From the NCBI GenBank assembly GCA_015059495.1, contig SVAI01000001.1:1154207-1218206 (forward strand): a stretch of DNA of 64,000 nucleotides, given 5' to 3'. Every line of letters starts with the position of its first letter. The first letter of the stretch is position 1. The position numbers and the translations under genes were made by a program. Of the stretch, positions 23,626 through 43,879 are shown one piece after another. The notes under the pieces were generated by a model. That model had not been told where the DNA came from. It saw only the letters and a program-made list of their open reading frames with translations, and did not search any database. Source of the DNA: Bacillota bacterium (GTDB taxonomy: Bacteria; Bacillota_I; Bacilli_A; RF39; UBA660).

Positions 23626-24159
23626 ATGAATAAGGTTGGGAAAGTTATAAGAAATATCTTAATAGGTATTTGGTTTGTTATAGCTGTTTTTACTACTGCA
23701 TGTTTACTATCTTATAATGATTTTAAGGTATCAACATTTGGTAAAAATTCATTAATAATTATTAATGATGATGAAATGGAAGAAGCAGGTTTTAACGAAG
23801 GTGATTTATTAGTAGTTAAAAGAAATAGCGATGCTAAAATCAATGTAGGTGATAAAGTATTCTATTACAATGCCAACAAAGATAGCGACGTAAATATCTT
23901 TACTGATGAAGTACAAGAAAAAGAAGCAGTAACTAAAACTGAAACAACTTATGTTCTAAATGGTAAAAAAGTATCTGGTGATTATGTAATTGGTACATTT
24001 AATAATACTAAAGTATATCATCACTTAGGAACAGTACTTGGAATTTTAACATCTAAATGGGGATTTATGTTCCTAGTTATATTCCCAACACTATTTGGAA
24101 CTATTTATGAAGTTATAATGATCGTAGACTTAGCAAAGTCAAATAAAGAAGAAGAGTAG
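23626..24159 (+). CDS. SipW-family (ER/archaeal-type signal peptidase I) paralogue with catalytic Ser and His replaced; probable pseudo-peptidase
   Basis: Same size and topology (N- and C-terminal TM) as the two SipW copies and collinear with them. The SGSMEP box reads DDEMEE and the THR(I/V) box reads FTDEV. Confidence 0.6.
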   Translation: MNKVGKVIRNILIGIWFVIAVFTTACLLSYNDFKVSTFGKNSLIIINDDEMEEAGFNEGDLLVVKRNSDAKINVGDKVFYYNANKDSDVNIFTDEVQEKEAVTKTETTYVLNGKKVSGDYVIGTFNNTKVYHHLGTVLGILTSKWGFMFLVIFPTLFGTIYEVIMIVDLAKSNKEEE

Positions 24160-24161
24160 TT

Positions 24162-24716
24162 ATGAAGATTAAACTATTAATATGTGCTGCTATACTATGT
24201 GGCATTACTGCACTAGTAGTATCAAACACATATGCATTATTTGAAACTAATGCTAGTGCAACATCAGACTTTCAAATAGGTAAATGGGTAATTAAATTAA
24301 ATAACAAAGACATATCACTATCTAAAATAATTACGCTAGATGATTTTACTTATGTTAATTCTACTCATGTTGAAGATGGCTATTTTGCGCCAACTTCAAA
24401 AGCAGAATTTGAAATTGATATTGATGCATCAGAAACTGATACATCAGTTGAATATACACTTGATATAGATGATTCAAATATTAGAGAATATCCCAATATA
24501 GGATTTAAAATTATTGATTTAGATACTAATCAAGAAACAACAGAAGTTAATATTTCTGGAATAATGTATCTAAATGATACAAATAAAACTAAAAGATATA
24601 AAATATCATTAGAATGGAACAATGATCCAGACTATGATGAATCAGATACAAGTTTAATTGGATCTGAATTACAATGTAAATTAAGTTTAGATTTCAAACA
24701 ATATCTAGGAGAATAA
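24162..24716 (+). CDS. secreted protein with SipW-cognate (TasA/camelysin-class) signal peptide
   Basis: Signal ...ALVVSNTYALFETNASATSDFQIGKWVIKLN resembles the TasA/CalY T-[WFY]-A-x-F motif. Paralogous to 31879-32472 (shared A/GxW..K(L/V)N and (Y/F)(F/I)APTS motifs). Confidence 0.6.
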   Translation: MKIKLLICAAILCGITALVVSNTYALFETNASATSDFQIGKWVIKLNNKDISLSKIITLDDFTYVNSTHVEDGYFAPTSKAEFEIDIDASETDTSVEYTLDIDDSNIREYPNIGFKIIDLDTNQETTEVNISGIMYLNDTNKTKRYKISLEWNNDPDYDESDTSLIGSELQCKLSLDFKQYLGE

Positions 24717-24734
24717 AAAAGGAAGTGGCTTGTT

Positions 24735-25520
24735 ATGGACCAAGTAAAAAACATAACGAAAAACATAATAAATATATTATGTGTAATACTATTTATTATT
24801 TTAGCACTTGTTATATATGCTAAATTAAGAGTTACGTTTTCAAATGATATTCATGCCAATTACTTCGGCGTAAGAATATTTGAAGTAGCAAGCGGTTCAA
24901 TGGAGCCAACTTTACAAATAAATGATGTATTACTAGTTAAAGTTAATGTAGATGATTTACAAAAAGATGATATAATCGCATATAAATCAGAAGATGCTAT
25001 AATAACACACAGAATTATTATGATTAATGATAATGATTTAATAGTAAAAGGGGACGCTAATAACACAGTTGATTCTCCAATTAAAAAAGAACAAGTAATC
25101 GGAAAAGTAGTTAAGGTCTTTCCACACCTTGGTATATGGAAAAAAATATTAACAGAGCCTAAGATACTAATATTAATATTTATTACTTTATTATTATTTG
25201 ATGGAGCTCTATCTTATAATGGTAAAGATAAGAAAAATAATAAAGAAGAAATTAAAAAAGAAGAAGTAAAAGAAATAAAGCAAGAACCTAAAAAAGAAGA
25301 CATCAAAGTAGATGTTGTTCAAGAGGATAATAAAACTAAAAACAATGATGATTTATTAACTAAATCAAAGATGCTTGCAAAACAAAACATAGATGAACTA
25401 TTAAAACAAGCAGAAGAGAAAATAGAAAAAGAAGAAGAACAAGTAGAAGAAGACACAGAATATACTATCAGGTTAGATTTAAATGAAATTCAAAAGAATA
25501 TAAATAAGTCTGTTAAGTAA
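24735..25520 (+). CDS. sipW: signal peptidase I, SipW type, with about 95-aa K/E-rich C-terminal extension
   Basis: Canonical boxes ASGSMEPT, ITHRII and KGDANN. TMs at the N-terminus and about aa 145-165, then a long charged tail. Confidence 0.85.
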   Translation: MDQVKNITKNIINILCVILFIILALVIYAKLRVTFSNDIHANYFGVRIFEVASGSMEPTLQINDVLLVKVNVDDLQKDDIIAYKSEDAIITHRIIMINDNDLIVKGDANNTVDSPIKKEQVIGKVVKVFPHLGIWKKILTEPKILILIFITLLLFDGALSYNGKDKKNNKEEIKKEEVKEIKQEPKKEDIKVDVVQEDNKTKNNDDLLTKSKMLAKQNIDELLKQAEEKIEKEEEQVEEDTEYTIRLDLNEIQKNINKSVK

Positions 25521-25535
25521 AGTGGGTGATGATAA

Positions 25536-26132
25536 GTGAAAAAAATAAAAGAGTTTTTAAATAATTTTAATAAGAAAACACTTAAACGTAGTTTACTATT
25601 TTCACTTATCGTTATGTTACTTATTATTACAATCGCAGCTTTTGATTTAACCCAAGCAAGATATGAAACAGCAACAGAAGTAAGAATTGAACCTGATTTA
25701 GCTTTTTTTATCGTAGATGTTGAAAGCCAAACTGGACAAATAAAATTAGAAAGTATGCTACCATCTACAACACCATATTTATATACATTTAATGTATCTA
25801 ATTTCAAAGATACTAAAAAAGCTAATGTAGATTTAAAATATTCAATTGAAATTATAACAACAACAAATATGCCACTTAACTATAAAGTGTATAAAGGTAC
25901 AAATACTAATAGTAATAAAGTATCAAATGATTACTTTGTTACTGATGATAATGGAATGTATTATCGCCATCTAGTAATAGATGATGTATCATATTTTAAC
26001 TATAATCAAAGACAAACTGATGTATATACACTTTGGGTAGAATATCCAATTGAATACAAAGCATATCCAAAAGAATATGCAGGTATTATAGATTTAGTGG
26101 ATATAAAAATAAATGCAGAGCAGGTAGTGTAA
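25536..26132 (+). CDS. secreted protein with variant SipW-type signal (…AFDLTQARYETATEV)
   Basis: Basic N-terminus, hydrophobic core and an A-[KR]-Y motif also found in 26134 and 31879. Beta-rich mature part. GTG start with GGGTGA RBS. Confidence 0.5.
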   Translation: MKKIKEFLNNFNKKTLKRSLLFSLIVMLLIITIAAFDLTQARYETATEVRIEPDLAFFIVDVESQTGQIKLESMLPSTTPYLYTFNVSNFKDTKKANVDLKYSIEIITTTNMPLNYKVYKGTNTNSNKVSNDYFVTDDNGMYYRHLVIDDVSYFNYNQRQTDVYTLWVEYPIEYKAYPKEYAGIIDLVDIKINAEQVV

Positions 26133-26133
26133 T

Positions 26134-27048
26134 ATGAAGAGATTAAGAAAATATTTAATAGTATTAATAATACTTGTTACACCATTATTTTTATATGGAA
26201 CATATACATTTGCTAAATATGTAACTGAAAAGTTCTTTAGTTACTATACTAATTCAAAGAACTTTTATTTCACAAGTAATATCTTAAAAGAAGATAATCC
26301 ACTATACCAAATTAATAACTGGGTAGGTATTGGACAATTTACTATCAACTTTGATTTATTATCATCAAAGAATGAATATGTTCATACTGATTATGATATT
26401 ACTTATGAAGCTTCAGTTACTTGTCCTAGTGATGTAATATGTGATTTAGACAAACCAACTGGAACAATACATGCTACAACACACAGTGATACATTACAAA
26501 TAACAGTAGCACCACAAAGGCTTTACACTGAAGGCCAAAAGATAACAATTCAAATTAGAGCGAAAACAACATCACCATATGTTAAAGAACTATATGCTAA
26601 ATATGAATATGTAGTTGGTAAAACTGGTGTTACATATGAAATAGAAGATAATGCTAATTCTCCATATCTATTACTTAAAATAACAAATGCAATTAACTAT
26701 TGTACAGTAATACAAGCTTTTGGAGAACATAATTTGCGTGATGCAATAGATGTTGATAACTACATGCAATTATCACAAACTGACAAAGCAAAATGTGTAA
26801 GTCAATATGCAAACTTTGGATTTGATCCAAATATGCTATTACTTGATACAACAAGTGAAGTAATAAAAAAAGCAACTTATGGAACTAGTAATGTAAATGG
26901 AAGAAACTATGTTAATTACATGAGATTTCCTCTAGATCCTTTAAGTAGTGTTGCTATAAAATTTTATAAGAATAACCCATCTGAAAACTATACTTATCCA
27001 GGAGTATATTCATGGAGTGTAATTTGGATTAACTTCCAAGAACCATAA
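26134..27048 (+). CDS. secreted protein with variant SipW-type signal (…GTYTFAKYVTEKF)
   Basis: N-terminal signal/anchor plus T-x-A-K-Y motif. 304 aa, beta-rich. Tightly coupled to the upstream gene (TAATATG). Confidence 0.5.
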   Translation: MKRLRKYLIVLIILVTPLFLYGTYTFAKYVTEKFFSYYTNSKNFYFTSNILKEDNPLYQINNWVGIGQFTINFDLLSSKNEYVHTDYDITYEASVTCPSDVICDLDKPTGTIHATTHSDTLQITVAPQRLYTEGQKITIQIRAKTTSPYVKELYAKYEYVVGKTGVTYEIEDNANSPYLLLKITNAINYCTVIQAFGEHNLRDAIDVDNYMQLSQTDKAKCVSQYANFGFDPNMLLLDTTSEVIKKATYGTSNVNGRNYVNYMRFPLDPLSSVAIKFYKNNPSENYTYPGVYSWSVIWINFQEP

Positions 27049-27065
27049 TAAAAAGGAGTAAGGCT

Positions 27066-28040
27066 ATGGAATATAATATAATCAATACCTATATTAAGTT
27101 TATCAAAACAAAGCTAATTGATTTCTTTAGAATAGTACTTAGAAATAGATATCAAAAGTCTATAGTTGAATTATTTGTTGATAAATATATTGAAGTAAGA
27201 TATTTCAATGAAACTAATTACTATGAACAAAAAGATTTCATAAAAAGACTTAATAGTGACTTAATAGATGTTTATAGTGCTAATGTTGATGAAAAGAATT
27301 CTAATACTTTAAAAACAATAGTAGCTTTATTTGGATACTTAACATATTTGGACGATTTATGTTATATCAAAGAAGATCTTGAAGTAATTAAAACTCTATC
27401 TTTAGATAAGAATTTAAAAATAGATGATGCTCAAAACTTAGAACAAGAATTAAAAACATGGTATTACGCATTAAAAGCAAGTAAAGAAAAATTCCAAAAG
27501 TCTATTGGAACAAAAGAGTTTAATTTAACTGAAAAAAGAATATATAAAAATACTTTTGAAGTTAAATTAGAACATAATGTTAAAATATCATATTTATTTA
27601 GTGAAACAGCTATTAATAAAGCATATAACTCAGGTACAGTAAATGAAGATAAATTATTTATTACTTATATTTTAACTACATTTAATGTATTAAATAATGC
27701 TAATAATTTAGATTTCTCTAAAAAATATATTGTTGATATAGCGGAAAGTATTTTTTCAAAAGAAAAGAAAAGAGAAAGATTATTTAATATCTTAAATACT
27801 ACTTTAGCTAAAAAACATGTAAGTATTAAAATAAATTATAGTGATTATTTAGAACATAAAGAATTTATAAATAAAAAGATAAAAGAAGGTTACTCTTTCA
27901 GTGTTGTTCTAGATAAAGATGATGTAGATTTAAATGAATTAATATTATTTTCTTATGTTTATGTATATGAAGATAGTGAGTTATTTGATATAATAAGTAA
28001 TAATGAAAATAAAGTAAGCGCAAAGATTATTAAGATTTAG
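27066..28040 (+). CDS. hypothetical cytoplasmic protein
   Basis: ORF track; AAGGAG RBS. No TM or signal. No motif I can support. Confidence 0.5.
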   Translation: MEYNIINTYIKFIKTKLIDFFRIVLRNRYQKSIVELFVDKYIEVRYFNETNYYEQKDFIKRLNSDLIDVYSANVDEKNSNTLKTIVALFGYLTYLDDLCYIKEDLEVIKTLSLDKNLKIDDAQNLEQELKTWYYALKASKEKFQKSIGTKEFNLTEKRIYKNTFEVKLEHNVKISYLFSETAINKAYNSGTVNEDKLFITYILTTFNVLNNANNLDFSKKYIVDIAESIFSKEKKRERLFNILNTTLAKKHVSIKINYSDYLEHKEFINKKIKEGYSFSVVLDKDDVDLNELILFSYVYVYEDSELFDIISNNENKVSAKIIKI

Positions 28041-28051
28041 GTGGTGAAGTT

Positions 28052-29575
28052 ATGAATACATTTTTTAGATTCCTATATGAATTTTTATCACAATTATTTA
28101 ATGGTTTATTATTTGCAGTTCAAGGAATATTTAGATGCTTTAAAACTATATTCAATTTTGGTGAATATATAAGAATAGTAAATGAATATAAAAATGACTT
28201 CAATGGACCTGAATGGATATTTGTAGGACTAGCAATACTTTTAACACTTGCAGTTCTAGCAGCAATAGTATTCTTAATATACTTCATTGTAAGAAAAATA
28301 CTTAAGTTTAGAAAAACTTTAGTAGATCAAGAATCACTATTAGATGAAGTTGCACAACTTAATAATGAAGTTGCTAAACTATATAAAGAAAAAGAACAAA
28401 TATTAGCAATGAAGGTATCTAAATTAGGATTAAAGCCTGATGAATCAGATACTGAAGAAGCACCTGCTGAGGGTGATAATGTAGATCCTAATACAGAAAT
28501 TAGATTCCCTAAATTATATGATGTAGATGAAAGATATAAAGATTACAAAGTTGCAAATTATAATAATAGTTTTGAATTACCAGAACTAGTAGATTTATTT
28601 AGAAACTTTGCAGCATCTAAATTAAAACTATACTATAAACCAAATATGATAAGATTGTTTATTGCTTCCTTAGCATCTACTAAGTTAGTAATCTTACAAG
28701 GTATTTCTGGTACAGGTAAAACATCGCTTGCATATGCTTGGGGTAAATTTTTAAAACATGACTCATGTATCGCATCAGTTCAACCATCATGGAGAGATAG
28801 AACTGAGTTATTCGGATACTTTAACGAATTTACTAAACGTTTCAATGAAACAGAAGTTTTAAAAGAAATGTATGAAGCAGGTTATACTGATGATGTTTAT
28901 ACAGTAATCTTAGATGAAATGAACATCTCTCGTGTAGAATATTATTTCGCAGAAATGTTATCTATCCTAGAGATGCCAAATAAAGATGAATGGATCGTTG
29001 AAATCGTACCAAGTGCATGGAAAAACGACCCTAAACGTTTAATGGAAGGTAAATTAAAAATTCCACCAAATGTATGGTACATCGGAACAATCAACAACGA
29101 TGACTCAACATTCATGGTAACAGATAAGGTTTACGACCGTGCCATGCCAATTGATATCAACGACAAAGGTGAAGTATTTACACCAGATGAAGTTGATGCA
29201 CAAGATATTAATTACTCATATTTAGATAAGAAATTTACTGAAGCTATTCAAGCTAATCCAATACATCAAGAAAATTTAGATAAAATTGAAAGAATGGATA
29301 ACTATGTTATTCAACACTTCAGAATTGCCTTCGGTAACCGTATTGTTGCACACATGAGAAAGTTTGTACCAGTATATGTTGCCTGTGGTGGAGATGAAGT
29401 AGATGGTATTGATTACTTCATAGCACGTAAAATCTTAAGAAAATTTGAACAACTTAACATTGCTTATATTAGAGATGAAATAGATGGATTTGTTGATTTC
29501 TTAAATAAAGAATTCGGTGAAAATAAAATGCATGAATGCATTGAATATCTATTAAGATTAAAGAAGATGGCATAG
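28052..29575 (+). CDS. membrane-anchored McrB-family AAA+ GTPase-like protein
   Basis: TM at about aa 55-80, short coiled coil, then Walker A GISGTGKTS, Walker B VILDEMNISRVEYYFAEMLSILE and PPNVWYIGTINNDDSTFMVTDKVYDRAM. These are collinear with E. coli McrB DEINRAN...GEVMMLME and VYIIGLMNTADRSLAVVDYALRRRF; the NxxD motif is kept. Confidence 0.8.
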   Translation: MNTFFRFLYEFLSQLFNGLLFAVQGIFRCFKTIFNFGEYIRIVNEYKNDFNGPEWIFVGLAILLTLAVLAAIVFLIYFIVRKILKFRKTLVDQESLLDEVAQLNNEVAKLYKEKEQILAMKVSKLGLKPDESDTEEAPAEGDNVDPNTEIRFPKLYDVDERYKDYKVANYNNSFELPELVDLFRNFAASKLKLYYKPNMIRLFIASLASTKLVILQGISGTGKTSLAYAWGKFLKHDSCIASVQPSWRDRTELFGYFNEFTKRFNETEVLKEMYEAGYTDDVYTVILDEMNISRVEYYFAEMLSILEMPNKDEWIVEIVPSAWKNDPKRLMEGKLKIPPNVWYIGTINNDDSTFMVTDKVYDRAMPIDINDKGEVFTPDEVDAQDINYSYLDKKFTEAIQANPIHQENLDKIERMDNYVIQHFRIAFGNRIVAHMRKFVPVYVACGGDEVDGIDYFIARKILRKFEQLNIAYIRDEIDGFVDFLNKEFGENKMHECIEYLLRLKKMA

Positions 29576-29578: not shown

Positions 29579-30688
29579 ATGAATGAATTAAAAGTATTAG
29601 ATTTATACCAAAATACACCTAAAGATAGATTAGAAAATTTCACTAATAATACTAGAGCTGAACTTAATATAAGCACAAATGTTAATAGAGTTGAAACAGA
29701 CTTCGAATGGTTAGAAATAATGGAAGATACAATAAGATATTTAGATAATATCTTAAGAAATCCTAATAGATTTATCGTTAATGAAGATGAAATAGTTAAA
29801 GTTGAACTTGCACGTCGTATTACAGTAGAATCTATTCGTCATTTATCTAAACATACTAACTTTATTCAAAAGATTGAAGATAATGGTGATGTTAAACCAT
29901 CTAAAATATTAAATATTAATAAAGAAGAAAGTTACGATACATATGAAAATAGACTTATCTATACATTAATAGATAATATGCGTAACTTTCTTGAAATAAA
30001 AAAGAAGAGTTTAATAACTTCTTCTTCTGTTAAAGATGTTAAGAAAGCTAGCTATAGTGCTAGAACAAAAGTGGGAAATGAAAACGTTTTTGTAGAGATG
30101 AGTTATTCATCAAGCTTAAACGAAAAAGTAGGCCCACAAGGTGAAGATTCACTAGAAAATAGAATTAAAAGATTAGATGATGATATAACTATGCTATCTA
30201 ATACAGATGTTATTAAAGCATTAAAAAAGGCTCACGTAGCAAGAGTTATACCACCAATAAAAAAGACTAATGTTATTTTAAAAAATACTAACTTTCAATA
30301 TGCAATGAAACTATGGGATTTCTTACAAAATCACGTAGCTAATGATGATAAAGTTATTAAGAGTAATAAGTCTTATGAAGAAAATGGTATATTAAAAGAT
30401 TATATGAATTCAACATTCTTACTTAATTATTTAGCAATGAATACCTTAAGCGATACATCACAAGGTAAAGCTGCAACTAAACAAGCAGTAGATGAAATTA
30501 CTGATAAATTAGTACAAAGAATTGTTGAATTAAACGTAGATATGCCTATGTCGGAATTAAAAGAAAGAATAGGAGATAAGATTGCTATAACAAGATATAA
30601 GACTGAAGCGTCTTTATCTGAAGTTAGCAATACATTCTCTAAACACATTAAAACTTATTTAGAAAAAATAGAAAATATAGAATTGTAG
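29579..30688 (+). CDS. McrC N-terminal / DUF2357-like protein lacking a recognisable nuclease domain
   Basis: EESYDTYENRLIYTLIDNM parallels E. coli McrC NEDTLANRIIKSTLAIL, and NTNFQYAMKLWDFL parallels NTRYYKFVISVCKFI. No D...(D/E)xK block follows. Gene lies 3 nt after the McrB-like gene. Confidence 0.55.
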   Translation: MNELKVLDLYQNTPKDRLENFTNNTRAELNISTNVNRVETDFEWLEIMEDTIRYLDNILRNPNRFIVNEDEIVKVELARRITVESIRHLSKHTNFIQKIEDNGDVKPSKILNINKEESYDTYENRLIYTLIDNMRNFLEIKKKSLITSSSVKDVKKASYSARTKVGNENVFVEMSYSSSLNEKVGPQGEDSLENRIKRLDDDITMLSNTDVIKALKKAHVARVIPPIKKTNVILKNTNFQYAMKLWDFLQNHVANDDKVIKSNKSYEENGILKDYMNSTFLLNYLAMNTLSDTSQGKAATKQAVDEITDKLVQRIVELNVDMPMSELKERIGDKIAITRYKTEASLSEVSNTFSKHIKTYLEKIENIEL

Positions 30689-34427: not shown

Positions 34428-34448
34428 AATGTAAAAATAGGGGTTTTA

Positions 34449-34477: not shown

Positions 34478-37400
34478 ATGCAAGCACGAACTAATATATC
34501 TAAAAATAAATTAGTTTTAATCATGCTAATAACAGCACTAGCTGTTATTTTGTCGTGGGTTGCTATTAAAGTATTTACTGCATCGGTTGAAGATTCTTCA
34601 TGGAATGGAGTAGTTGCTACATCCTTTAAAAGTGGAACAGGTAGTACTTCCAACCCATATGTAATTTCTTCATCTGCAGAATTTGCATACTTCAAACAAT
34701 TAATGGAAGGTAATAGTGCTACACTATATGCTTCTAAAAATTATGAAATAACAATCGGACTTAATTATGGTGATCATGATATTTCAATTAATAACACAAT
34801 TCCTTTTAGTGGAACAATAGATGGTAAAGGTAATACAATCTATAATGCTAATATAACTAATGGATTATTTAATGAATTATCTAATGCTACTATTAAAAAT
34901 TTAGCATTTAATAATACTGATTATACTTTAGATGATGAACAAGGTGGTTTCTTAGCAGACTCTATTACATCATCTACAATTGAAATGGTTGTAATAGATT
35001 CTAAAATAGTAAAAGGAAATGACGAATATATTGTAAGTGGTATTACTAATTCATCTACTTCATCAACATATAACAAGGTAGTTGTATATAATAAATATCA
35101 AGGAACTTATGGTACTAATACAACATACAATATTGCGCACTTATCAAATAGTGATTCATATACTAATGTCTTAACTAACCAAAATGGATTTAATAACTTT
35201 AGTAATGCTAATCACGAAATAAAAAGATTTACTGTTAGCAACAATAACACACTAACTTATAGTCAAATGGCTGACTTTAGTGATACTGATTATGAAATAG
35301 TAATTAACAGTACTCAATTTGTATTAAGAGAAAAAGTTCAACAAGCAACTAATCCTACATCAGCAGAACATGCAACTGGAAGAGAAGGTAATACAATTTA
35401 TTTAAATAATTTAGATGCTGATTTTGGTTTCTATTCGGGTTTAAATTATACTTACTCAAGTGATTATAAATTACCAACAATGGTAAGTAAAAATATTTAT
35501 ACAGATACAACTTTAGTTAAAGCAACAATTACTTATTCTGGTATTGAAACAAATAGTAATCAAACATTAACTGGTACTATTTCTTCAACAGAAAACTATA
35601 ACAAAATAGTTTATTATGATTATCTACCAGTAGAAAACAATAAAGTTAAAATTACTTTAATAGATAATCCATTTACAAATAGACCTAATGGTAAAGGATT
35701 TAACAACTGGATAAGTGATACCGTTGGAGTAACACTTTCATATGACTTAGTTAGATATGAAAGATTTGCAGAAATAGCTTTAACAAGAAATGCACAAGGT
35801 ACATATGATCCTATCACATTAGACTTCCATGCAAGTTGGGTTGATGCAACTGAATATGGTTTAACTGGTAATAACTGGACAAACGCATTTAACACTTTCA
35901 AATCAAAAGGTTTAGAACAAATTGAAGTATCAAGAGAAGAATGTGGACCAGTAATGGATCAATATTATAGATATGCAGTAGCAGCAAGATATTCATACTA
36001 TACTGGTTATTATCAAAGTGGTAATTCATGGTACAACGCAAATAATAGATATTGTAATACCAGAAATGGATGTCCATACTATTATGATGTTCCTGAAGGT
36101 GAAATATATCAACCTGGAACAACATATTACTATTTTCAAAATAATGCATTCCATCAATTAGATACAACTGGATATCAAGTAACTTGTGAAACAATACAAC
36201 TTGTTAATTCAAACTTTATAACAGCTGGATATTATACAGAAAAGACATTTAGTAGAAATCAATCAATAAATGGTTATTATAATGCAAATGGTGAACCTGT
36301 ATCTGGAACATGTACATCATCAAGTTGTACATATTATGAATTTATTCAATCATATACAAGTAATGGTCAAAGACCTCTAGTAGACTTTTCAAAGAAATAT
36401 TATTACTTAGTTACTAGAGATACTAACATAGCTTATCTAACTGGAGATATTACAAACTATTGGAGTAGTTCACAAAATAAACCATTTACTTTGACTGGTC
36501 TACATAATGGTACTCAAACATCATATGACTGGACAGTAACAAATAATGTTATAACATTACAAAATGATACAACAATAGAGCACTTAACAATTTATAACAA
36601 TAAAAGCTTTAATACTTTAGACCCACAGCCAAGTGTATCAAGTGGTGGATGGTGGTCTTCTACAACATACTATTCAGCAATAAATGCAAACTGGCATAAT
36701 TTAAAAGTGGGTAGAGGATTAAAACAATATAGTACTAATAATCCAACATTCGATTATATCTGGGGTGGATCAAGTGCAGTAAGTAGTAGTTCATCATCAG
36801 GTTACTACAACATGATTATTGAATCTGGTCACTATGATTCAATGGCGTATACTTTGCCATATAATAATGGTTCAACAATATATGTAGATAATAAAACAGT
36901 GTTAGGCTGTGATGTTGATAAAGTACTAGATACTAACAACAATAACTTATCAGTATACTATGAAGCTGCTGCATCATTTTCTGGAACAATATATCCTAAA
37001 GTAGAAATAGCAACAGACCTAACAGTTAAGAGTGGTAAGTTTGGTACATCAAAAGAGGACATGTATACAGGTATCTATGTTGGTGGATTAACAAGTGGTA
37101 CAAACTATGCTGCAAGAAAAATAAAAGTTGAAGGTGGATACATCTATAACTTAATCGGTGGACCTTTAACACACGAAAATAGAAAACAATATAATGACTC
37201 TTATATTTATATGACTGGTGGAGAAGTCGATATTATTATCGGTGGTGCCGGTAGATCTCCAACATATGGTAATCGTATAATTCAAGTTACTGGTGGTAAA
37301 GTTAACTATGGTGTCTTAGGCGGATCTAATGGATCTGGTTCAGATACCCAAGATGGAGACGGAGTTGTTAATGGTTCATCTTACCTATATATAGGTGGTA

Positions 37401-40400
37401 ATGCAGTTATTGGAAGTGATTCGCTAATAACTAGTAATTCAACGCTTTGGGGTGTTGCATCTGGATCAGTATTTGGTAATGGTAATGGTAAGAGTGGAAC
37501 TGAATATATTGGCTCAAATGATAACTCATACGTAATTATAGATGGTGAGGCAGAGATTAAAGGCTCAGTATACGGTGGTGGAAACTACGGTGCAACAGGT
37601 GTAAGAAGTACAGCATCAACAACTGAAACAAAAATAAATATCATCGGTGGAACAATAAATCAAGATGTTTATGGTGGAGGTAACCAAAATGGTTCTGGTT
37701 CAACTTCCAAGTCATCAACAATTACAATAAATCAAACAGGCGGAACTGTTAAAGGAAGTATATACGGTGGATCAAATATTTCTGGAACTATCTATGGAGT
37801 AACTAATGTAAATGTTTTAGATGGAACAGTTGATACAAATGTCTATGGTGGTGGAAAGGGACAAAATACATTTGTTAGAAATAATGCAAATGTAACAATT
37901 GGAAATTCAACACCTAATGTTCCAGTAATAAATGGTAACGTTTATGGTGGTTCTGGTTATGGAACAGTAAACGGTGTTAATACAAGTACTCAAACATCAA
38001 ATGCAAATACTTATGTAACAGTTAACAACGGAATTGTTAAAGGTTCAGTATTTGGTGGTGGTCAAGGAAGTAATACTTATACACCTTATGTTCTTGGAAA
38101 CATTACTGTAGAGATTAATGGTGGAGATATAACTGCTGTATATGGTGGTAATGATCAAGCAGGATCACATAATAAAACAAATAAAGTAAATTTAAATGGC
38201 GGTGTAATTGAAAACGCCTTTGGTGGTGGTAACAGGTCAAGTGTTAACACAACAAATGTTACATTACAAGGTTCAGAAGTAGCTAACATTTATGGTGGAT
38301 CAAACAATACTGGAACAGTTCAAACATCAAATGTTCAAATAAAATCTGGTTCTGTTGGAAACGCTTTAGGTGGAAACAACAAAGGTGGAAATTGTTATAC
38401 AACCAATGTTAACGTTGAAGGTAGTGCAAATGTTTTAGTAGCAGTATACGGTGGAGGAAACGAAGTAGATACAACTAGCGCAAATGTTACTTTAAAATCT
38501 GCAGGAAGTACAATACCAAATGTTTATGGTGGAGGAAACTCAGCAAGCGTTAATACCGTACAAATTACTAAGACTAGTACAAATGTAACAAACTTATTTG
38601 GTGGCTCTAATTCATCAGGTACAGTTCAACAATGTTATATAAATCATAATGGTGGAACAACAACAAACCTTTATGGTGGAAATAACGAAGGTGGTAGTAC
38701 ATTATCAAGTAATATTTACTATAGTAATGGTAATGCTACAACAATTTATGGTGGAGGAAACAAAGCAAGTACTCAAACAGCTAATGTTAACATCTATGGT
38801 GGAACAATAGATACTATATTTGGTGGTGGTAACTCTGCTGGTGTTAATAACACAACTGTTAATGCAAGTGGTGCCACAATTAATAATATTTATGGTGGTT
38901 CAAATGCTTCTGGTTTAGTTCAAACAACAACTATTAACTCAAACACAAACGTACATAATATTTATGGTGGAGGTAACTTAGCTGAAACTAATACACCAAC
39001 AATAAATGTAACTGCTGGAACAGTAGATTACATCTACGGTGGCGGAAACTTAGCTAAAGTTAACAACGGCACAACAATAAGAATTCAAAATGCTACTGTA
39101 AATAATAATATTTATGGTGGTGGAAACTTCGGAGTAGTTAAAGGTTCAACAGACCTAAGAGTACTTAATACTACAATAAAAGGTAGTATCTATGGTGGAG
39201 GAAATGGTGAATCTGCTACTGTTGAAGGAAATACACTAGTAAATGTTGGAGGAAACACAATTGTTGGTACAACATCATCTGTTGCTCCACATTCAGGTAG
39301 TGTCTTTGGTGGAGGTAACCAAGCCTACACAGGAACAGTAACAAGAAATGATTCAACAACAACAGTAAACATTGCTGGTGCAACAATTTATGGTAATGTT
39401 TATGGTGGTGCAAATACATCAGTTGTTTACGGAGATACAAACGTTAATATTGGATATGATAAAGTAACTGATAATACTTTACCAAAAGATAATATTTATA
39501 TTAAAGGTCATGTCTTTGGTGGTGGTGAAGCTAACGCTGCTGGTTCAGAAAACTACGACTGGTACTTCATCAGTGTTACTCAAGGTACTAACATCAATAT
39601 TGATGCTAATGGACATACATCATTTGATATCCTTGGATCATTCTATGGTGGAGGTAATGCATCTTCAGCAACAGGTGATACAATATTAAATATTGATAAT
39701 TATGGTTACTCACAACATCCAAAAGTAAACGTTTCAATTCAACGTGTTACAACAGTTAATATTAATAACTCATCAATTGCTCTAAAAGGTGCAATCGATA
39801 GAGCTAATGATTATGATAAAGAATTATTTGCAATAAGTCGTGTTATTACACTTAACTTAAAAAATAATTCAGAATTATATTTTGCTACTGGTACAAACTT
39901 ACTTGAAAACTTCAATTCACTTGATGCAAGTAATAATCCAGCAGTAGTAACAATAGATAGTGAAACTCATCAAATAACAAAGAGTGTCGATAATAGACTT
40001 TATGCATACGAAGGTAAAAATATTAACATTGCTCATGACCAACAAGTTACAGATTATGGTAATGTTACTGGTATGACATTCTTTGGGTTATTCACATTCA
40101 ATTATGATGATAGTGTATACACTGGTAACTATTCTCCAAATTATAATTATGGTGATGCACTTTCATATGCTGGAGCATTTACACGTGGTAGTTATGTACT
40201 AGGAGCTCATAAAACAAATCATAACATCGAAGTAGATGGATTCTACAGTAATTTCATGAATGAAGAAACTCAATTAAATGAGATTAAATATATAGATCCA
40301 ACACCAACAGATGCATTATTCTACATGTGGTTTATTGGTGAAAATGTAATTGAATATAATGTTAACTTAGTAGCATCTAAATATTCAACTTTAGGTTCAG

Positions 40401-42223
40401 TTGAAGTATCGTTCTTCGAATTTACTGATCCAAATACATCATTTGAAATTCTTAACTTTGACAGTACTGAATTAGCAGATGGTATTCATTTAGTAAATAA
40501 AAATGATATTCCAAGAACAGCATCAACTGAAGCAGAAGCTAACTCAAACTTTGGTTTAACAATGGAAGCTTCAAACACAGGTTGGTTAACAACTGGTAAA
40601 ACATCATTCTATACTGCTGATCCAAATATGGTTGGAACAACATACTATGAAGGTGAAAATTCAACATTAGTTCCAACAATGCTATTCTACTTATACCATT
40701 CAAAAAATATAAGTTTAGAACAAGAACTAGGAACAGTAAGAATATCAGTTATGACTATAACAAAGAAGAGTGCGCTTCAAAGTGAGGTAAGAAGACTTGT
40801 TATTAACGTTAACATGTCAACAGCATTGTTCCAATCAGTAGAGTATGAAGGTGCGATGACACCAGGTGATAAGTACGAATTATTTGCTTCAACAACAAAT
40901 AACATAACAACAAAATCAAAACTAAGTGCTTATTATTCACTATATGGTGAAAATACAAATCTATATAGACCAGGATATCATAGAGTACTTACATCAACTT
41001 ACATACTTCCATTAAATACTAAAATAACTATGATAGACTTTGCTAACAATCAAAATAATTATTATTATCACATTATAGATCAAGCTGATGTAACTAGAAC
41101 AACAACTGAATATCAAAATCAAAATGAAGTATCTTATCCATTATCTATGTTTACGGCAATGGGTTCACTAGATACAAACAATAATTATTCTGATGCAGCA
41201 ATGAATTCAATATACTATGATGGAACGGATAGTTCTGAGGAATTTATATTTATACTGGATTTCTCAGATACTGATATTAATTCAGATCAATTAAATAATA
41301 AACTATTAATTGAAATAAGAGATTCTAATGAAGAATCAATGATTACAGTATTAGGTATTGAACATAATCAATTAACTTATAACCTATATCATGATAGAGA
41401 TTCAAAAATTAACGTTAACGTAACACCTAGTGATAATCCACTTTATATAGGTTATAGTGATATCTTCGATTTATCAGTTAGCTATCAAAATGATTCACTA
41501 GATAACATTGGTGTAATTGATACCCAATACTTTAACTCTAAACTTGGAGTACAAATATCTATAGTTAATAATGAAGGTAATACAATATCAGGTACAGACC
41601 TTGTAGGTACATATTTTGAAATGGATGGTCAAAGATATTATCCAGATGTAAATGGTATTACACACATTAAATTATCAGATAAAGTTGGTAATACACAAAA
41701 ATGGATTATATTTAACACTGAAAACTCTTCAATAGCAACCGGTGACTATACATTCGTATTTAGTGCATTTGGTTCAGTTGACGGTATATATTACAGTGAA
41801 TCCTTGCCAGATGTTGAAAACTTAGATATAATTATTATTAATAGTAAGTATGGTCTAAACCCAGAGATAAATGATAATTCAATTATCTTTAATGCTATTA
41901 ATGATAAGAGTTTGAAATTTACTGTAGACTATTCTTCTATGTTAGATAATCCAAATATTAGAGTAGCATTGTATCGTAGAAAATATGATCAAATATATGA
42001 TACAAGATATGATTTAGTAGATTTAGCTGATTATGTTGATCAAGATCTATTTACTACTAATAATCCAAAAGAATACTTGTTAATAAATAATCCTCAAGCT
42101 CATAATAGTTTCAACCTAGCTATGAAAGAAGAATTATTAACAGGTACATATAGACTAATATTTAGACTATATGATAATGATGTCTTAATCGGTGACATAA
42201 CAAGATATATAATAATAAAGTGA
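34478..42223 (+). CDS. giant (2581 aa) secreted/surface beta-helix repeat protein, putative adhesin or fibre component
   Basis: Uninterrupted ORF with AGGAG RBS. N-terminal signal/anchor (LVLIMLITALAVILSWVAI), GLUG-like head (PFSGTIDGKGNTIYNANITNGLF), about 870 aa of 24-residue [VI][YF]GG[GS]N repeats, and about 880 aa of C-terminal beta-rich region. No LPXTG. Confidence 0.85.
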   Translation: MQARTNISKNKLVLIMLITALAVILSWVAIKVFTASVEDSSWNGVVATSFKSGTGSTSNPYVISSSAEFAYFKQLMEGNSATLYASKNYEITIGLNYGDHDISINNTIPFSGTIDGKGNTIYNANITNGLFNELSNATIKNLAFNNTDYTLDDEQGGFLADSITSSTIEMVVIDSKIVKGNDEYIVSGITNSSTSSTYNKVVVYNKYQGTYGTNTTYNIAHLSNSDSYTNVLTNQNGFNNFSNANHEIKRFTVSNNNTLTYSQMADFSDTDYEIVINSTQFVLREKVQQATNPTSAEHATGREGNTIYLNNLDADFGFYSGLNYTYSSDYKLPTMVSKNIYTDTTLVKATITYSGIETNSNQTLTGTISSTENYNKIVYYDYLPVENNKVKITLIDNPFTNRPNGKGFNNWISDTVGVTLSYDLVRYERFAEIALTRNAQGTYDPITLDFHASWVDATEYGLTGNNWTNAFNTFKSKGLEQIEVSREECGPVMDQYYRYAVAARYSYYTGYYQSGNSWYNANNRYCNTRNGCPYYYDVPEGEIYQPGTTYYYFQNNAFHQLDTTGYQVTCETIQLVNSNFITAGYYTEKTFSRNQSINGYYNANGEPVSGTCTSSSCTYYEFIQSYTSNGQRPLVDFSKKYYYLVTRDTNIAYLTGDITNYWSSSQNKPFTLTGLHNGTQTSYDWTVTNNVITLQNDTTIEHLTIYNNKSFNTLDPQPSVSSGGWWSSTTYYSAINANWHNLKVGRGLKQYSTNNPTFDYIWGGSSAVSSSSSSGYYNMIIESGHYDSMAYTLPYNNGSTIYVDNKTVLGCDVDKVLDTNNNNLSVYYEAAASFSGTIYPKVEIATDLTVKSGKFGTSKEDMYTGIYVGGLTSGTNYAARKIKVEGGYIYNLIGGPLTHENRKQYNDSYIYMTGGEVDIIIGGAGRSPTYGNRIIQVTGGKVNYGVLGGSNGSGSDTQDGDGVVNGSSYLYIGGNAVIGSDSLITSNSTLWGVASGSVFGNGNGKSGTEYIGSNDNSYVIIDGEAEIKGSVYGGGNYGATGVRSTASTTETKINIIGGTINQDVYGGGNQNGSGSTSKSSTITINQTGGTVKGSIYGGSNISGTIYGVTNVNVLDGTVDTNVYGGGKGQNTFVRNNANVTIGNSTPNVPVINGNVYGGSGYGTVNGVNTSTQTSNANTYVTVNNGIVKGSVFGGGQGSNTYTPYVLGNITVEINGGDITAVYGGNDQAGSHNKTNKVNLNGGVIENAFGGGNRSSVNTTNVTLQGSEVANIYGGSNNTGTVQTSNVQIKSGSVGNALGGNNKGGNCYTTNVNVEGSANVLVAVYGGGNEVDTTSANVTLKSAGSTIPNVYGGGNSASVNTVQITKTSTNVTNLFGGSNSSGTVQQCYINHNGGTTTNLYGGNNEGGSTLSSNIYYSNGNATTIYGGGNKASTQTANVNIYGGTIDTIFGGGNSAGVNNTTVNASGATINNIYGGSNASGLVQTTTINSNTNVHNIYGGGNLAETNTPTINVTAGTVDYIYGGGNLAKVNNGTTIRIQNATVNNNIYGGGNFGVVKGSTDLRVLNTTIKGSIYGGGNGESATVEGNTLVNVGGNTIVGTTSSVAPHSGSVFGGGNQAYTGTVTRNDSTTTVNIAGATIYGNVYGGANTSVVYGDTNVNIGYDKVTDNTLPKDNIYIKGHVFGGGEANAAGSENYDWYFISVTQGTNINIDANGHTSFDILGSFYGGGNASSATGDTILNIDNYGYSQHPKVNVSIQRVTTVNINNSSIALKGAIDRANDYDKELFAISRVITLNLKNNSELYFATGTNLLENFNSLDASNNPAVVTIDSETHQITKSVDNRLYAYEGKNINIAHDQQVTDYGNVTGMTFFGLFTFNYDDSVYTGNYSPNYNYGDALSYAGAFTRGSYVLGAHKTNHNIEVDGFYSNFMNEETQLNEIKYIDPTPTDALFYMWFIGENVIEYNVNLVASKYSTLGSVEVSFFEFTDPNTSFEILNFDSTELADGIHLVNKNDIPRTASTEAEANSNFGLTMEASNTGWLTTGKTSFYTADPNMVGTTYYEGENSTLVPTMLFYLYHSKNISLEQELGTVRISVMTITKKSALQSEVRRLVINVNMSTALFQSVEYEGAMTPGDKYELFASTTNNITTKSKLSAYYSLYGENTNLYRPGYHRVLTSTYILPLNTKITMIDFANNQNNYYYHIIDQADVTRTTTEYQNQNEVSYPLSMFTAMGSLDTNNNYSDAAMNSIYYDGTDSSEEFIFILDFSDTDINSDQLNNKLLIEIRDSNEESMITVLGIEHNQLTYNLYHDRDSKINVNVTPSDNPLYIGYSDIFDLSVSYQNDSLDNIGVIDTQYFNSKLGVQISIVNNEGNTISGTDLVGTYFEMDGQRYYPDVNGITHIKLSDKVGNTQKWIIFNTENSSIATGDYTFVFSAFGSVDGIYYSESLPDVENLDIIIINSKYGLNPEINDNSIIFNAINDKSLKFTVDYSSMLDNPNIRVALYRRKYDQIYDTRYDLVDLADYVDQDLFTTNNPKEYLLINNPQAHNSFNLAMKEELLTGTYRLIFRLYDNDVLIGDITRYIIIK
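37072..39680 (+). repeat. coding tandem repeat: about 25 clear plus about 5 degenerate copies of a 72-nt (24-aa) unit
   Basis: Recurrent TATGGTGGAGGAAAC (YGGGN). Consensus x-[IV]-[YF]-G-G-[GS]-N-x-x-x-[VT]-x-x-[TS]-x-[VI]-N-[VI]-x-G-G-x-[VI]. Units are diverged at the DNA level. Confidence 0.75.
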
Positions 42224-42233
42224 GGTATAAAAT

Positions 42234-42380
42234 ATGAATATTAATAACATTAAAAATTTAAGTAATAATGAAATACTACAGTTAAGATCAAAAATAGTAC
42301 AACATGTCGAAACATTGGAAGAAAAAAAGAATAAGGTGGAAGAAATAAATGCTGGAAAATCTGCAAAACCAACTAGATGA
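42234..42380 (+). CDS. possible small ORF (48 aa) absent from the ORF track
   Basis: ATG 42234 is 10 nt after the giant gene stop. Encodes MNINNIKNLSNNEILQLRSKIVQHVETLEEKKNKVEEINAGKSAKPTR*. Overlaps the next gene's start by 32 nt in another frame. Confidence 0.3.
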   Translation: MNINNIKNLSNNEILQLRSKIVQHVETLEEKKNKVEEINAGKSAKPTR

Positions 42381-43848
42381 AACAATTAACTTAATTGATA
42401 CTCTTCCAGAAAATACTAAAGATAATAGACAAAAGAAACTAAAATACATTGCAGAAGAAGAGATGAAATCACTTGCTCTTCTTACTGCAATAAATAATGA
42501 GTTAAAATATAGAACTGCTAAATTTAGTTTCTTAAAAGAAAATAAAGCTTTAGAAGAATTACAAAAAGAATTAGATAAATGTACTATTATAGATGAATGG
42601 AGTACTTACAATACTTCATATGAAAAACTTCACTTAGATTATTATTTATATCAATTACATAGATATTATAAAAATGATTTAGAAAATGTTAATAACTGTA
42701 TAAGACAAATATTAGATATATTTAAAGGAGTGGGTATTAATCTTACTCAAGAAGATTTTGACTACCATCCATATGTATCTAAATATATAACAATGATTCA
42801 AAATAATACTGATGAAGAACAATTAAAAGATGCTTTTGAACCACTTTACTGGAAACTTCCAGAGTTAATCAAAGCTATTGAAATAAACTTCAAAAGTATA
42901 TATTTAAAGTATGAAAAGAAAATAGATAAATATTTTGAAACTAAACAAAAAGAATATTTATCAAAACATACTGATAAAGAATTAATAGATAAAAAACAAC
43001 AATTAATTAAAACAATTAATTCTACTAGAGAAAAAGATCCATACTATATATTCAATAAATTTGTTAATAAAGAATATATGTTAAATGATTATAATGAAAA
43101 TGATATCAATAAAAGAAAACAATTATATTTTAATGATTTAGGATATACATTTGATTTCCTACTTGAATTCTATCAAGTATTATTCGATTATAAACTAATA
43201 CTTAAATATAATTATTTATTCAAAGATATTAAAGAATTATTGTCACAAGTTAATACACTAAAAGATGCTAAAAAGAATGCACTTAAGAAAGTATTAAATA
43301 CTGAAAAACAAATTAAGAAATTAACAGGTAAAGGATTATTTGGTAAAGAAAAGAATCCTGATTCTTACTTAATTAAATATAAAGCTTTATTAACCCAAAT
43401 AATTGATGAATATACTGAGTTAGAAGATGCATCATTTAAAGATACAATATTTAATAATTTTAATACTAATTCATCAGCACTAAATGCACTAGAATTAGTA
43501 AGCTTAAATTATCTACACTTTATAAATAAACTTAAAGAAGTAGATGATAATGAAGAATTAGATAATATTAATTCTAAATATAATGAATTAAAAGATATAT
43601 TAAATACTAATAATTTTGTATTACTTGATAAATTATCTCTATTAGATGAATATCAATTAAAACAAGTTATTGTAGATAAATATGTTTTAGATGGTGTTAA
43701 ACTAACTAAAGAACAATTAGAAGCTGATAGTATTGATAAAACTCTAGCAGATATAAAGATATTAATTAATAATGAATATATTATTAGATCTGGACTAAAA
43801 CTAGAAGATATTAAATTATACTTTGACGTAAAGAGTTTAGATATATAA
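42349..43848 (+). CDS. cytoplasmic alpha-helical / coiled-coil protein, function unknown
   Basis: 499 aa, K/E/L/N-rich, with no TM or signal. Last gene before a strong terminator. Confidence 0.55.
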   Translation: MLENLQNQLDETINLIDTLPENTKDNRQKKLKYIAEEEMKSLALLTAINNELKYRTAKFSFLKENKALEELQKELDKCTIIDEWSTYNTSYEKLHLDYYLYQLHRYYKNDLENVNNCIRQILDIFKGVGINLTQEDFDYHPYVSKYITMIQNNTDEEQLKDAFEPLYWKLPELIKAIEINFKSIYLKYEKKIDKYFETKQKEYLSKHTDKELIDKKQQLIKTINSTREKDPYYIFNKFVNKEYMLNDYNENDINKRKQLYFNDLGYTFDFLLEFYQVLFDYKLILKYNYLFKDIKELLSQVNTLKDAKKNALKKVLNTEKQIKKLTGKGLFGKEKNPDSYLIKYKALLTQIIDEYTELEDASFKDTIFNNFNTNSSALNALELVSLNYLHFINKLKEVDDNEELDNINSKYNELKDILNTNNFVLLDKLSLLDEYQLKQVIVDKYVLDGVKLTKEQLEADSIDKTLADIKILINNEYIIRSGLKLEDIKLYFDVKSLDI

Positions 43849-43851
43849 AAG

Positions 43852-43879
43852 AAAATCTAGAATACTAGATTTTTTTTTA
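43852..43879 (+). terminator. rho-independent terminator closing the accessory locus
   Basis: AAAATCTAG-AATA-CTAGATTTT followed by a long T-run. Confidence 0.7.

Follow-up and report, generated by a model that had tools for sequence, protein, structure and literature searches.

A CoCoPALM-type locus with SipW-type signal peptidases, an McrBC-like pair and candidate fibre subunits probably encodes a surface fibre in uncultured Bacilli

Within the NxD branch, the 2024 census of McrBC systems by Bell et al. recognised a large clade whose GTPases carry a fused FtsB-like domain made of transmembrane and coiled-coil parts (PMC11090510). The clade was named CoCoPALM in one paragraph (section 7, eLife 13:RP94800), which deferred its analysis to a forthcoming paper, and was reported to be associated with genes of the signal peptidase family (PMC11090510). 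A full-text literature search for the name CoCoPALM returns only this article and its preprint, and searches for SipW with McrB and for DUF2357 with signal peptidase found no characterisation past that paragraph. Here, we describe a locus of about 20 kb at positions 23,626 to 43,879 of a 64,000-nucleotide (nt) stretch of Bacillota DNA (contig SVAI01000001.1, positions 1,154,207 to 1,218,206, forward strand), which is called the window below. The host is an uncultured, low-GC, small-genome member of Bacilli from the gut or rumen. We filed the locus as CoCoPALM because its GTPase has an N-x-D-D signature that is invariant in the orthologues. It is very likely that the region is one conserved functional unit of the CoCoPALM kind, and the best explanation, which we consider probable rather than secure, is that it is a chromosomal operon set for a CoCoPALM-type surface-fibre system, that is, for McrBC-linked, sortase-independent pilus assembly.

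A preliminary description of the locus, made from the sequence alone, had found no described system with this architecture, but the definition of CoCoPALM fits it (PMC11090510). The shared features are an NxD McrB whose N-terminus has a transmembrane helix and a coiled-coil-like stretch, a DUF2357 McrC that lacks a nuclease, signal peptidase genes and a Bacillota host. The McrC of the window differs in its short length (369 amino acids, aa) and in having hardly any coiled coil, if one at all; its peptidase is encoded by a separate gene. The locus also goes beyond the published paragraph in having a substrate family (T-Y-A-W-F ... W-x-E-G-x-D-x-D-C), a membrane-anchored paralogue of these substrates as a core gene, a conserved dead peptidase, minor subunits resembling donor-strand pilins, a cytoplasmic protein called U324 here, and a giant solenoid protein with its partner CC499. 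It is thus an elaborate variant of a system class that is named but uncharacterised.

Two better-known systems share parts of this design. Escherichia coli McrBC likewise consists of an AAA+ GTPase (Walker A and B motifs and an Asn-Asp signature) and a DUF2357 McrC encoded immediately downstream. In the window, however, the signature is NxD and not NxxD, a transmembrane helix and coiled coil replace the DNA-binding domain, the McrC has no PD-(D/E)xK nuclease, and the context is secretory instead of restriction-modification. The tapA-sipW-tasA operon of B. subtilis and the sipW-tasA-calY operon of B. cereus are similar to the locus in that a SipW-type peptidase is encoded beside secreted substrates and the system is sortase-independent; in addition, TasA forms a fibre through an N-terminal donor strand, and the ~200-aa secreted family of the window matches the TasA fibre 8aur at the level of the fold. 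The locus differs from these operons in that none of its proteins belongs to PF12389, its major subunit is unrelated and larger, and it encodes three paralogous peptidases together with an NTPase pair and a putative giant adhesin but no SinR/SinI-type regulator. Pfam and NCBIfam scans of all 15 locus proteins returned only the peptidases, DUF2357 and a weak McrB match, with no sortase, PilB/PilT-type ATPase or SinR/SinI-type family, and a motif search found no LPXTG-like motif in any of them, which agrees with the absences listed in the preliminary description. Sequence searches of the Protein Data Bank (PDB) with Maj326, the T184/T197m profile, McrC, U324, CC499 and the giant protein gave nothing meaningful.

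The genes that carry the assignment are as follows.

28052..29575, plus strand: McrB-like GTPase of the NxD branch, 507 aa, N-terminal transmembrane and coiled-coil segment with one transmembrane helix at 62-80
29579..30688, plus strand: McrC-like partner (McrC369), 369 aa, DUF2357 McrC N-terminal domain (PF09823, 45.3 bits)
30697..31233, plus strand: SipW178, second active SipW-type peptidase (TIGR02228, 88.9 bits; Ser of xSM and THRVI conserved)
24735..25520, plus strand: SipW261, active SipW-type signal peptidase with a long Lys/Glu-rich C-terminal tail (TIGR02228, 89.1 bits; SGSM, THR and GDANN conserved)
23626..24159, plus strand: pSipW, catalytically dead SipW-type paralogue, 177 aa, transmembrane helices at 11-29 and 134-152
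32675..33397, plus strand: A240, N-terminally membrane-anchored paralogue of Maj326, transmembrane helix at 25-43 preceded by Lys/Arg residues
33403..34383, plus strand: Maj326, candidate major subunit, signal ...TTTYA|WFTAN, C-terminal YMWIEGQDIDCENNATGS; AlphaFold2 model all-beta with a predicted local distance difference test score (pLDDT) of 84.8

The McrB-like GTPase is the most conserved protein of the locus, with 59-91% identity where Maj326 has 38-71% and the small subunits have 25-60%. Its Walker A (GISGTGKTS), Walker B (ILDEMN) and signature (N-N-D-D) motifs are invariant in 42 orthologues. The signature lies in the context G-T-I-N-N-D-D-S-T, so that N-x-D is followed by an acidic residue (D/E), as is usual in CoCoPALM, and the signatures of distant relatives are N-H-D-E, N-S-D-Q, N-K-D-D and N-R-D-E. 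The AAA+ domain matches E. coli McrB with an E value of 2.5e-4 and the PADLOC model PDC-M26A with 4e-35. At the position where McrBC has a domain that binds DNA or reads modified bases, the window protein has a hydrophobic segment with transmembrane and coiled-coil character that is conserved; designed coiled coils and that of NEMO are matched by residues 66-117, and the coiled-coil-like stretch covers about 66-120. For the McrC-like partner, no PD-(D/E)xK nuclease was detected with Pfam, NCBIfam, PADLOC or PDB, and 45 sequences contain no conserved D..ExK pattern. This McrC is short and matches no coiled-coil family, while larger homologues (613-1057 aa) contain long coiled coils, for example the crescentin-rod-like matches in L133 and residues ~380-590 in L166.

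The pair was then surveyed beyond the close relatives of the window. A full HMMER scan of 1.84 billion representative sequences found 763 McrB-like relatives at E <= 1e-30, among them full-length, membrane-anchored ones down to 35% identity and others with larger extracellular, multi-spanning or coiled-coil N-termini; one human-gut variant represents more than 5000 database sequences. A metagenome scan was seeded with an alignment of distant, membrane-anchored relatives of McrB, which share 35-47% identity with the seed, and it returned 80 loci, in which neighbours were labelled with hidden Markov models (HMMs) of the window's families. An McrC-like gene lies directly downstream of McrB in 75 of these 80 loci, a SipW-family gene lies within 5 kb in 70, typically one on each side, and 61 loci encode, within 6 kb, proteins of the Maj326/A240 family, recognisable by a T-[YF]-A-W-[FY] signal together with a W-x-E-G-x-D-x-(D/E)-C motif. 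The association with signal peptidases that characterises CoCoPALM is thus found in the locus itself, which has three SipW-family genes, in 70/80 distant loci and in gene fusions. McrC::SipW fusions occur in the metagenome loci L146 (11589-14558) and L115 (1948-5121) and in a cultured Ruminococcus (GCA_000621285.1; L166:11644-14613). In these proteins, a charged coiled coil of ~200 residues and transmembrane helices connect McrC to a SipW whose peptidase motifs (TGSMEP and THRIV) are intact, a topology that fits a cytoplasmic McrC part, transmembrane helices and a peptidase domain on the outside. Such gene fusions are evidence of the classical kind for joint work of the GTPase complex and the peptidase. 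In the window, the SipW178 gene starts 8 nt past the end of the McrC-like gene, and the two represent the split form of the fusion. The pair, which had been described as embedded in the locus, is not an insertion of foreign DNA. No other part of the locus is as conserved, and the pair forms its conserved core, tied to SipW and major-subunit-family genes across wider Bacillota.

The Ruminococcus operon has the order EAL - A240-like - SipW - McrB - McrC::SipW. The A240 family HMM matches the gene two upstream of McrB, with the SipW gene in between, at 6e-65, and it matches in about 45/80 of the metagenome loci, so that A240 is a core CoCoPALM component. An EAL gene lies immediately upstream of this operon, and a convergent GGDEF gene lies ~300 nt past the two small open reading frames (ORFs) that follow McrC::SipW; these neighbours hint at control by cyclic di-GMP.

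The remaining genes of the locus, in their order along the window, are listed here.

24162..24716, plus strand: T184, ~200-aa pilin-like secreted subunit, signal ...SNTYA|LFETN; 42 orthologues; paralogue of T197m
25536..26132, plus strand: S198, secreted subunit of ~200 aa and remote member of the pilin-like family; its signal is ...LTQA|RYE; 46 orthologues
26134..27048, plus strand: S304, secreted 304-aa protein with an FA|KY signal; 42 orthologues, always adjoining U324 and McrB
27066..28040, plus strand: U324, cytoplasmic protein without a transmembrane helix; 41 orthologues in synteny, directly 5' of the McrB-like gene throughout the lineage
31217..31849, plus strand: T210, secreted subunit, signal ...SNTFA|WFIY; 41 orthologues; 17-nt overlap with the SipW178 gene
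31879..32472, minus strand: T197m, pilin-like secreted subunit, signal ...QESYA|KYISS; AlphaFold2 model with pLDDT 74.7
34478..42223, plus strand: giant surface protein, 2581 aa, N-terminal hydrophobic helix and a Gly/Asn-rich solenoid region at ~947-1723
42234..42380, plus strand: small hydrophilic ORF of 48 aa between the giant gene and CC499, overlapping the CC499 start; called as a gene on L001 and L002
42349..43848, plus strand: CC499, cytoplasmic, Lys/Glu-rich, probably helical, without a transmembrane helix; 55 orthologues; constant partner of the giant gene

We compared the window proteins with the 80 best Maj326-containing loci, each with 10-kb flanks, and used 40 species-level loci with at least 9 kb on each side of the Maj326 gene as the full-flank subset; the neighbourhood labels rest on our own ORF calls and on HMMs built from these loci. 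The complete set (McrB, giant, CC499, SipW and the ~200-aa family) is present in 25 of the 40 full-flank loci, mostly in the gene order of the window, and the whole set in order is also found in species whose Maj326 is only ~40% identical. Each listed ORF has orthologues in dozens of other genomes. The preliminary description had treated the region as a single locus and had named accidental adjacency, with modules co-occurring in no other genome, as the outcome that would speak against this; the recurrence of the full set contradicts that outcome. Its proposal of a multi-component, SipW-based surface fibre carrying a giant adhesin probably holds in outline, while the status it gave to the McrBC pair and its claim that no described system corresponds do not.

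Three layouts recur among these loci: the order of the window, a permuted one (Giant-CC499-pSipW-T184-SipW-S198-Maj, then pSipW-S304-U324-McrB-McrC-SipW-T210) and a minimal one (A240-Maj-CC499-SipW-Giant). From these layouts, the giant gene, CC499, one SipW and Maj326 are therefore the most constant set around Maj326, and S304-U324-McrB-McrC-SipW-T210 is a second module with its own peptidase. Relatives carry genome labels such as Bacilli, Erysipelotrichaceae, Clostridium sp. CAG and similar, and many taxonomic labels of metagenome-assembled genomes (MAGs) are unreliable. Records titled 'uncultured Muribaculaceae' with a locus of the Bacillota type are found among L024, L030, L047, L050, L056, L060, L066, L076 and L084, and single records of the same group bear the titles Acidaminococcus, Bacteroidaceae or Vescimonas. 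Wrong binning or labelling of these MAGs is the most likely explanation.

The preliminary description had named three SipW paralogues including a pseudo-SipW, and our results agree. SipW261 and SipW178 exceed the 51.85-bit cut-off of TIGR02228, the model of the archaeal/SipW-type signal peptidase I, and keep the Ser (SGSM or xSM), His (THR) and GDxN..D motifs across all orthologues; both score and motifs place them in the SipW type (ER/archaeal, S26B). By the same score and motifs, pSipW is not a member: it reaches just 24.8 bits, and the Ser and His motifs are missing in 46/46 orthologues, even though it is a full-length homologue of both active SipW families (hhalign probabilities 97-99%). 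Since the catalytic motifs are lost in all 46 orthologues, pSipW is a conserved pseudo-enzyme and not a decaying gene. The SipA/LepA protein of Streptococcus pyogenes is a catalytically inactive, signal-peptidase-like chaperone of pilus assembly (PMC4049620). The likeness is that both are inactive signal-peptidase homologues encoded within a Gram-positive pilus locus or, for the window, a candidate one; SipA, in contrast, is a bacterial P-type peptidase homologue that works with sortase-polymerised LPXTG pilins, whereas pSipW is of the SipW (ER/archaeal) type and its locus has no sortase. Residues ~160-261 of SipW261 form a Lys/Glu-rich tail of ~100 residues beyond the second transmembrane helix, and the single SipW of minimal-layout loci has 418-463 aa. 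Such long charged tails may be the split counterpart of the coiled coil in the McrC::SipW fusions.

An N-terminal hydrophobic helix followed by a motif of the [YF]-A-x-[FY] type is present in six proteins, those encoded at 24162, 25536, 26134, 31217, 31879 (minus strand) and 33403, and a regular expression for the motif matched 5 ORFs in the whole 64-kb window, all of them within the locus, to which the window's members of the secreted families are likewise confined. This agrees with the six SipW-substrate-like proteins and the membrane-anchored relative reported before; the anchor of the latter, A240, looks uncleaved. Maj326 starts at the ATG at 33403 and not at the GTG at 33394. TIGR04088, a SipW-cognate signal model to which the preliminary description had pointed, hit Maj326 with 16.5 bits, under its cut-off of 19, and no other locus protein. 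Close homologues of Maj326 carry the JGI annotation 'SipW-like signal peptide', and its signal motif is a recognisable variant of the SipW-cognate signal. The N-terminus that follows the predicted cleavage site (WFTANQVVTINSINVKVEA) is almost invariant. Maj326 is encoded in 483 of 185,579 species-representative genomes; it has 1607 database homologues, none with a Pfam domain, and no sequence relative in the PDB.

For profile-profile comparison with hhalign, the subunit families were built from the 80 related loci. T184, T197m, T210 and S198 form one ~200-aa family (probabilities 77-99.8%), in which T184 and T197m are the closest paralogues (99.8%), S198 reaches 95% to the T197m family and 77% to T184, and T210 reaches 95% to T184 and also 94% to Maj326, the latter over the N-terminal ~50 residues only. 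The three signal-motif classes were earlier taken to suggest several structurally distinct subunits, a division that does not hold, as the A-K-Y protein encoded at 31879 (minus strand) is closest to the A-L-F protein encoded at 24162. S304 stands apart from the other secreted families and has no family match in Pfam or NCBIfam and no detectable relatives beyond these loci. A240 and Maj326 have the C-terminal W-x-E-G-x-D-x-D-C motif in common. Between the small and large secreted families, hhalign gave no homology beyond the N-termini. Near their C-termini, the beta-rich secreted proteins T184, T197m, T210, A240 and Maj326 all have a Trp and, after it, an acidic loop, with the variants W-N-N-D-P-D-Y-D, W-I-D-G-T-G-E-T-M-D-N, W-L-E-G-D-D-P-D-C and W-I-E-G-Q-D-I-D-C; it may be a common metal-binding or strand-capping element that joins the small and large families.

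The term TasA-like, used earlier for several of these proteins, was examined at two levels. At the sequence level it fails: no locus protein matches PF12389 (Peptidase_M73/TasA) at E <= 0.01, T184 has no Pfam match and no PDB sequence match, and the T184/T197m profile finds no TasA chain among PDB sequences. At the fold level it is weakly upheld, for the ~200-aa family only. The structure of T197m was predicted from an alignment of database homologues, and its top Foldseek match in the PDB is the CS20 pilin 8eht_B (E 4.4e-4), followed by the TasA fibre 8aur_A (E 5.4e-4, probability 1.0, template modelling score (TM-score) 0.35); CFA/I, the PapG pilin domain, FimG and CsuA/B are further top matches, so that nearly all of them are subunits of donor-strand-exchange filaments. 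The predicted models thus lend the ~200-aa family weak but coherent fold support for a relation to TasA and donor-strand pilins, and Maj326 shows no fold relative.

The giant protein contains 26 [YFLA]GG[GSAN] motifs with a period of 24-27 residues. This periodicity fits the solenoid or beta-helix proposed before, an assignment made from composition and periodicity only. Orthologues of 1656-2947 aa are present in at least 30 loci and almost always adjoin CC499; the giant protein has no family or PDB match. Past the hydrophobic helix, its N-terminus differs by lineage: Bacilli-type loci have T-F-S-E...S-S-A-W-D-G, and Clostridia-type loci have N-S-R-A-(E/N)-K, which resembles an ordinary AxA-type cleavage site. 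In 7 further loci, an ORF with weak similarity to the small 48-aa ORF (E 5e-4 to 0.03) occupies the corresponding place. We considered that it might be a frameshifted N-terminus of CC499 and rejected this, as the orthologous CC499 proteins begin at the same Met. CC499 has no family or PDB match, and from its composition it may be a coiled-coil protein. U324 has no match in Pfam, NCBIfam, PADLOC or PDB, and neither U324 nor CC499 shows a relation to McrB, McrC or one another with hhalign.

From these parts, we propose how the system might work. The substrates, namely Maj326, the four ~200-aa pilin-like proteins and S304, would be exported with an N-terminal hydrophobic helix ending in [YF]-A-x-[FY] and clipped by the two active SipW peptidases. 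The peptidases and motifs are observed, and we infer the cleavage from the B. subtilis SipW-TasA/TapA paradigm. Cleavage after the motif Ala would expose a conserved beta-strand (WFTANQVVTINSINVKVEA in Maj326), and this new N-terminal strand would complement the next subunit as in TasA and chaperone-usher pili, a pairing suggested because the ~200-aa family matches the donor-strand-pilin fold. A240, the uncleaved paralogue of Maj326, could serve as the membrane base of the fibre, and pSipW may act as a signal-peptide-binding chaperone or scaffold by analogy with S. pyogenes SipA/LepA (PMC4049620). The transmembrane helix and coiled coil of the McrB-like GTPase would hold it beneath the membrane, with McrC physically coupled to SipW, a coupling evident from the conserved adjacency and the McrC::coiled-coil::SipW fusion proteins. 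GTP hydrolysis by the pair might then drive or gate subunit processing and membrane extraction, comparable to PilB/PilD in type IV pili; this step is the least certain. The giant solenoid protein would be an adhesive or distal component, and CC499 and the 48-aa peptide its cytoplasmic partners, roles that are suggested because these genes are constantly adjacent.

The proposed logic is similar to that found in type IV pili as well as in type II secretion, in which an N-terminal helix keeps the subunits in the membrane, a dedicated peptidase acts on them and a cytoplasmic hexameric NTPase is placed at the membrane. There is no homology to these systems: the subunits are all-beta with a cleaved helix, unlike the alpha-beta pilins that keep theirs, the NTPase is an McrB-type AAA+ protein and not PilB/GspE, and no PilC-like platform is encoded. 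The parts of the proposal differ in strength. That the locus makes an extracellular fibre is, on balance, the likelier case; that the GTPase powers its assembly is possible though doubtful; and the full picture, in which McrB/McrC was co-opted as the motor or gate of an unrecognised Gram-positive filament pathway, with SipW as prepilin peptidase and all-beta donor-strand subunits extracted from the membrane, is tentative.

Several observations weigh against a GTPase-assisted fibre. The AlphaFold2 model of Maj326 has no significant Foldseek match to a filament in the PDB, and no match with E < 0.03; among filaments, the Sulfolobus thread 7pnb comes closest, with an E value of 0.03. For T197m, the resemblance to pilins is weak (TM-score 0.31-0.35 and E about 5e-4, from a model with pLDDT 75), and a Pfam scan of 26 T184/T197m family members found no match to PF12389 at E <= 1. 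The FtsB homology reported for the CoCoPALM N-terminus was not reproduced for residues 1-162 of the McrB-like protein (no Pfam FtsB/DivIC match at E <= 0.1). Among the 40 full-flank loci with Maj326, 11 lack McrBC within 10 kb, and 10 of these 11 have the giant gene, so that the GTPase is not required locally by every version of the system. Literature searches found no experimental work on any CoCoPALM system and no fibre that has been seen. Finally, the closest relatives of the CoCoPALM McrB clade, the CoCoNuTs, are predicted defence systems (PMC11090510). If this kinship is given more weight, together with the match of the AAA+ domain to PDC-M26A (4e-35), which is a defence-candidate model, the pair could be an immune module (type IV restriction or abortive infection) for which the fibre is a phage receptor, with the tether and the peptidase link sensing the surface and triggering a cytoplasmic response. 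We consider this improbable. No nuclease or effector domain was found in McrC369, U324 or any neighbour, McrC is fused to a signal peptidase, and the pair lies in a housekeeping chromosomal context in stable synteny, with 59-91% identity where other locus proteins have 25-60%, unlike mobile and patchy defence genes.

The secreted proteins could also build a non-filamentous coat, such as an S-layer-like sheet, a capsule-like matrix or an envelope scaffold, fixed by A240 and with the giant protein as an embedded adhesin. A large all-beta Maj326 without a filament-protein fold match, its wide distribution and high conservation (483 species), and a membrane-anchored paralogue as a core component would all suit a coat, which we regard as unlikely, if a little less so than the immune module, given that the ~200-aa family matches donor-strand pilins specifically, that several minor subunits with one major subunit are the pattern of a pilus, and that an invariant N-terminal strand past the cleavage site is typical of donor strands. 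That a tapA-sipW-tasA-like unit came to lie beside a restriction system and an adhesin gene by chance has in its favour that the modules are separable: Giant-CC499-pSipW-T184-SipW-S198-Maj occurs without nearby McrBC, and other loci have only A240-Maj-CC499-SipW-Giant. With the full combination in 25/40 full-flank loci, mostly in the same order, McrBC tied to SipW and Maj326/A240-family genes in 61-70 of 80 independent distant loci, and gene fusions in existence, we give chance almost no weight.

If the GTPase does act in fibre assembly, this would be the first non-defence role of an McrBC machine and a new Gram-positive route of pilus building that differs from those of the sortase, type IV, chaperone-usher and spontaneous TasA type and is widespread in gut and rumen Bacillota, Ruminococcus included. 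Several large families without annotation would gain a name and a context as well: the major-subunit/anchor family, the ~200-aa pilin-like family, U324 and CC499. In the gut communities of humans and ruminants, the hosts are abundant; they are uncultured and have reduced genomes. The locus takes up ~1.6% of the DNA on a contig of ~1.26 Mb, the longest on record with Maj326, and this share points to an important surface structure. Hundreds of species have the wider system, and its cultivable Ruminococcus carrier makes testing possible. What is new here is the parts list, the substrate family, the gene-fusion evidence and the cultivable model.

The window is chromosomal DNA with a low GC content of about 26%. 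Positions 23626-43879 hold 15 substantial ORFs and one small one, tightly packed or overlapping and all but one on the plus strand; all ORFs that the preliminary description had listed were recovered at the same positions. The identical 20 kb is also present on metagenome contigs of up to 0.95 Mb. The locus has RNase R, LigA, a GGDEF protein, thymidine kinase and a lipoprotein as 5' neighbours and a PTAC acyltransferase, DusB, an SDR and a methionine gamma-lyase-family enzyme as 3' neighbours. We considered a mobile island and rejected it, given the housekeeping genes on both flanks. The three transcription blocks described earlier are each closed by an AT-rich hairpin with a U-run. One such terminator lies between the convergent genes T210 and T197m, and the other two are at these positions:

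34401..34430, plus strand: AT-rich hairpin followed by a U-run, terminator-like, 3' of the Maj326 gene (direct folding; z of only -1.6 for a 106-nt stretch)
43852..43880, plus strand: hairpin with U9, terminator at the end of the locus (direct folding, -14.4 kcal/mol, z -4.6)

These AT-rich terminators are visible only by direct folding; a GC-based promoter and terminator scan gave sites no more numerous than in shuffled sequence.

The lipoprotein just 5' of the locus (22715-23515, plus strand, 266 aa, lipobox LLTGC) occurs in no related contigs other than the identical L001 and L002 and is outside the conserved system for that reason. A 674-aa protein with a C-terminal GGDEF domain is encoded 13 kb upstream (8421-10445, plus strand), and a link to the control of the fibre genes is possible either way. 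Two further envelope or surface genes of the window lie outside the locus: one encodes a 1249-aa MMPL-family membrane protein (50035-53784, minus strand) and the other a 623-aa protein with three cadherin-like beta-sandwich domains (61204-63075, plus strand).

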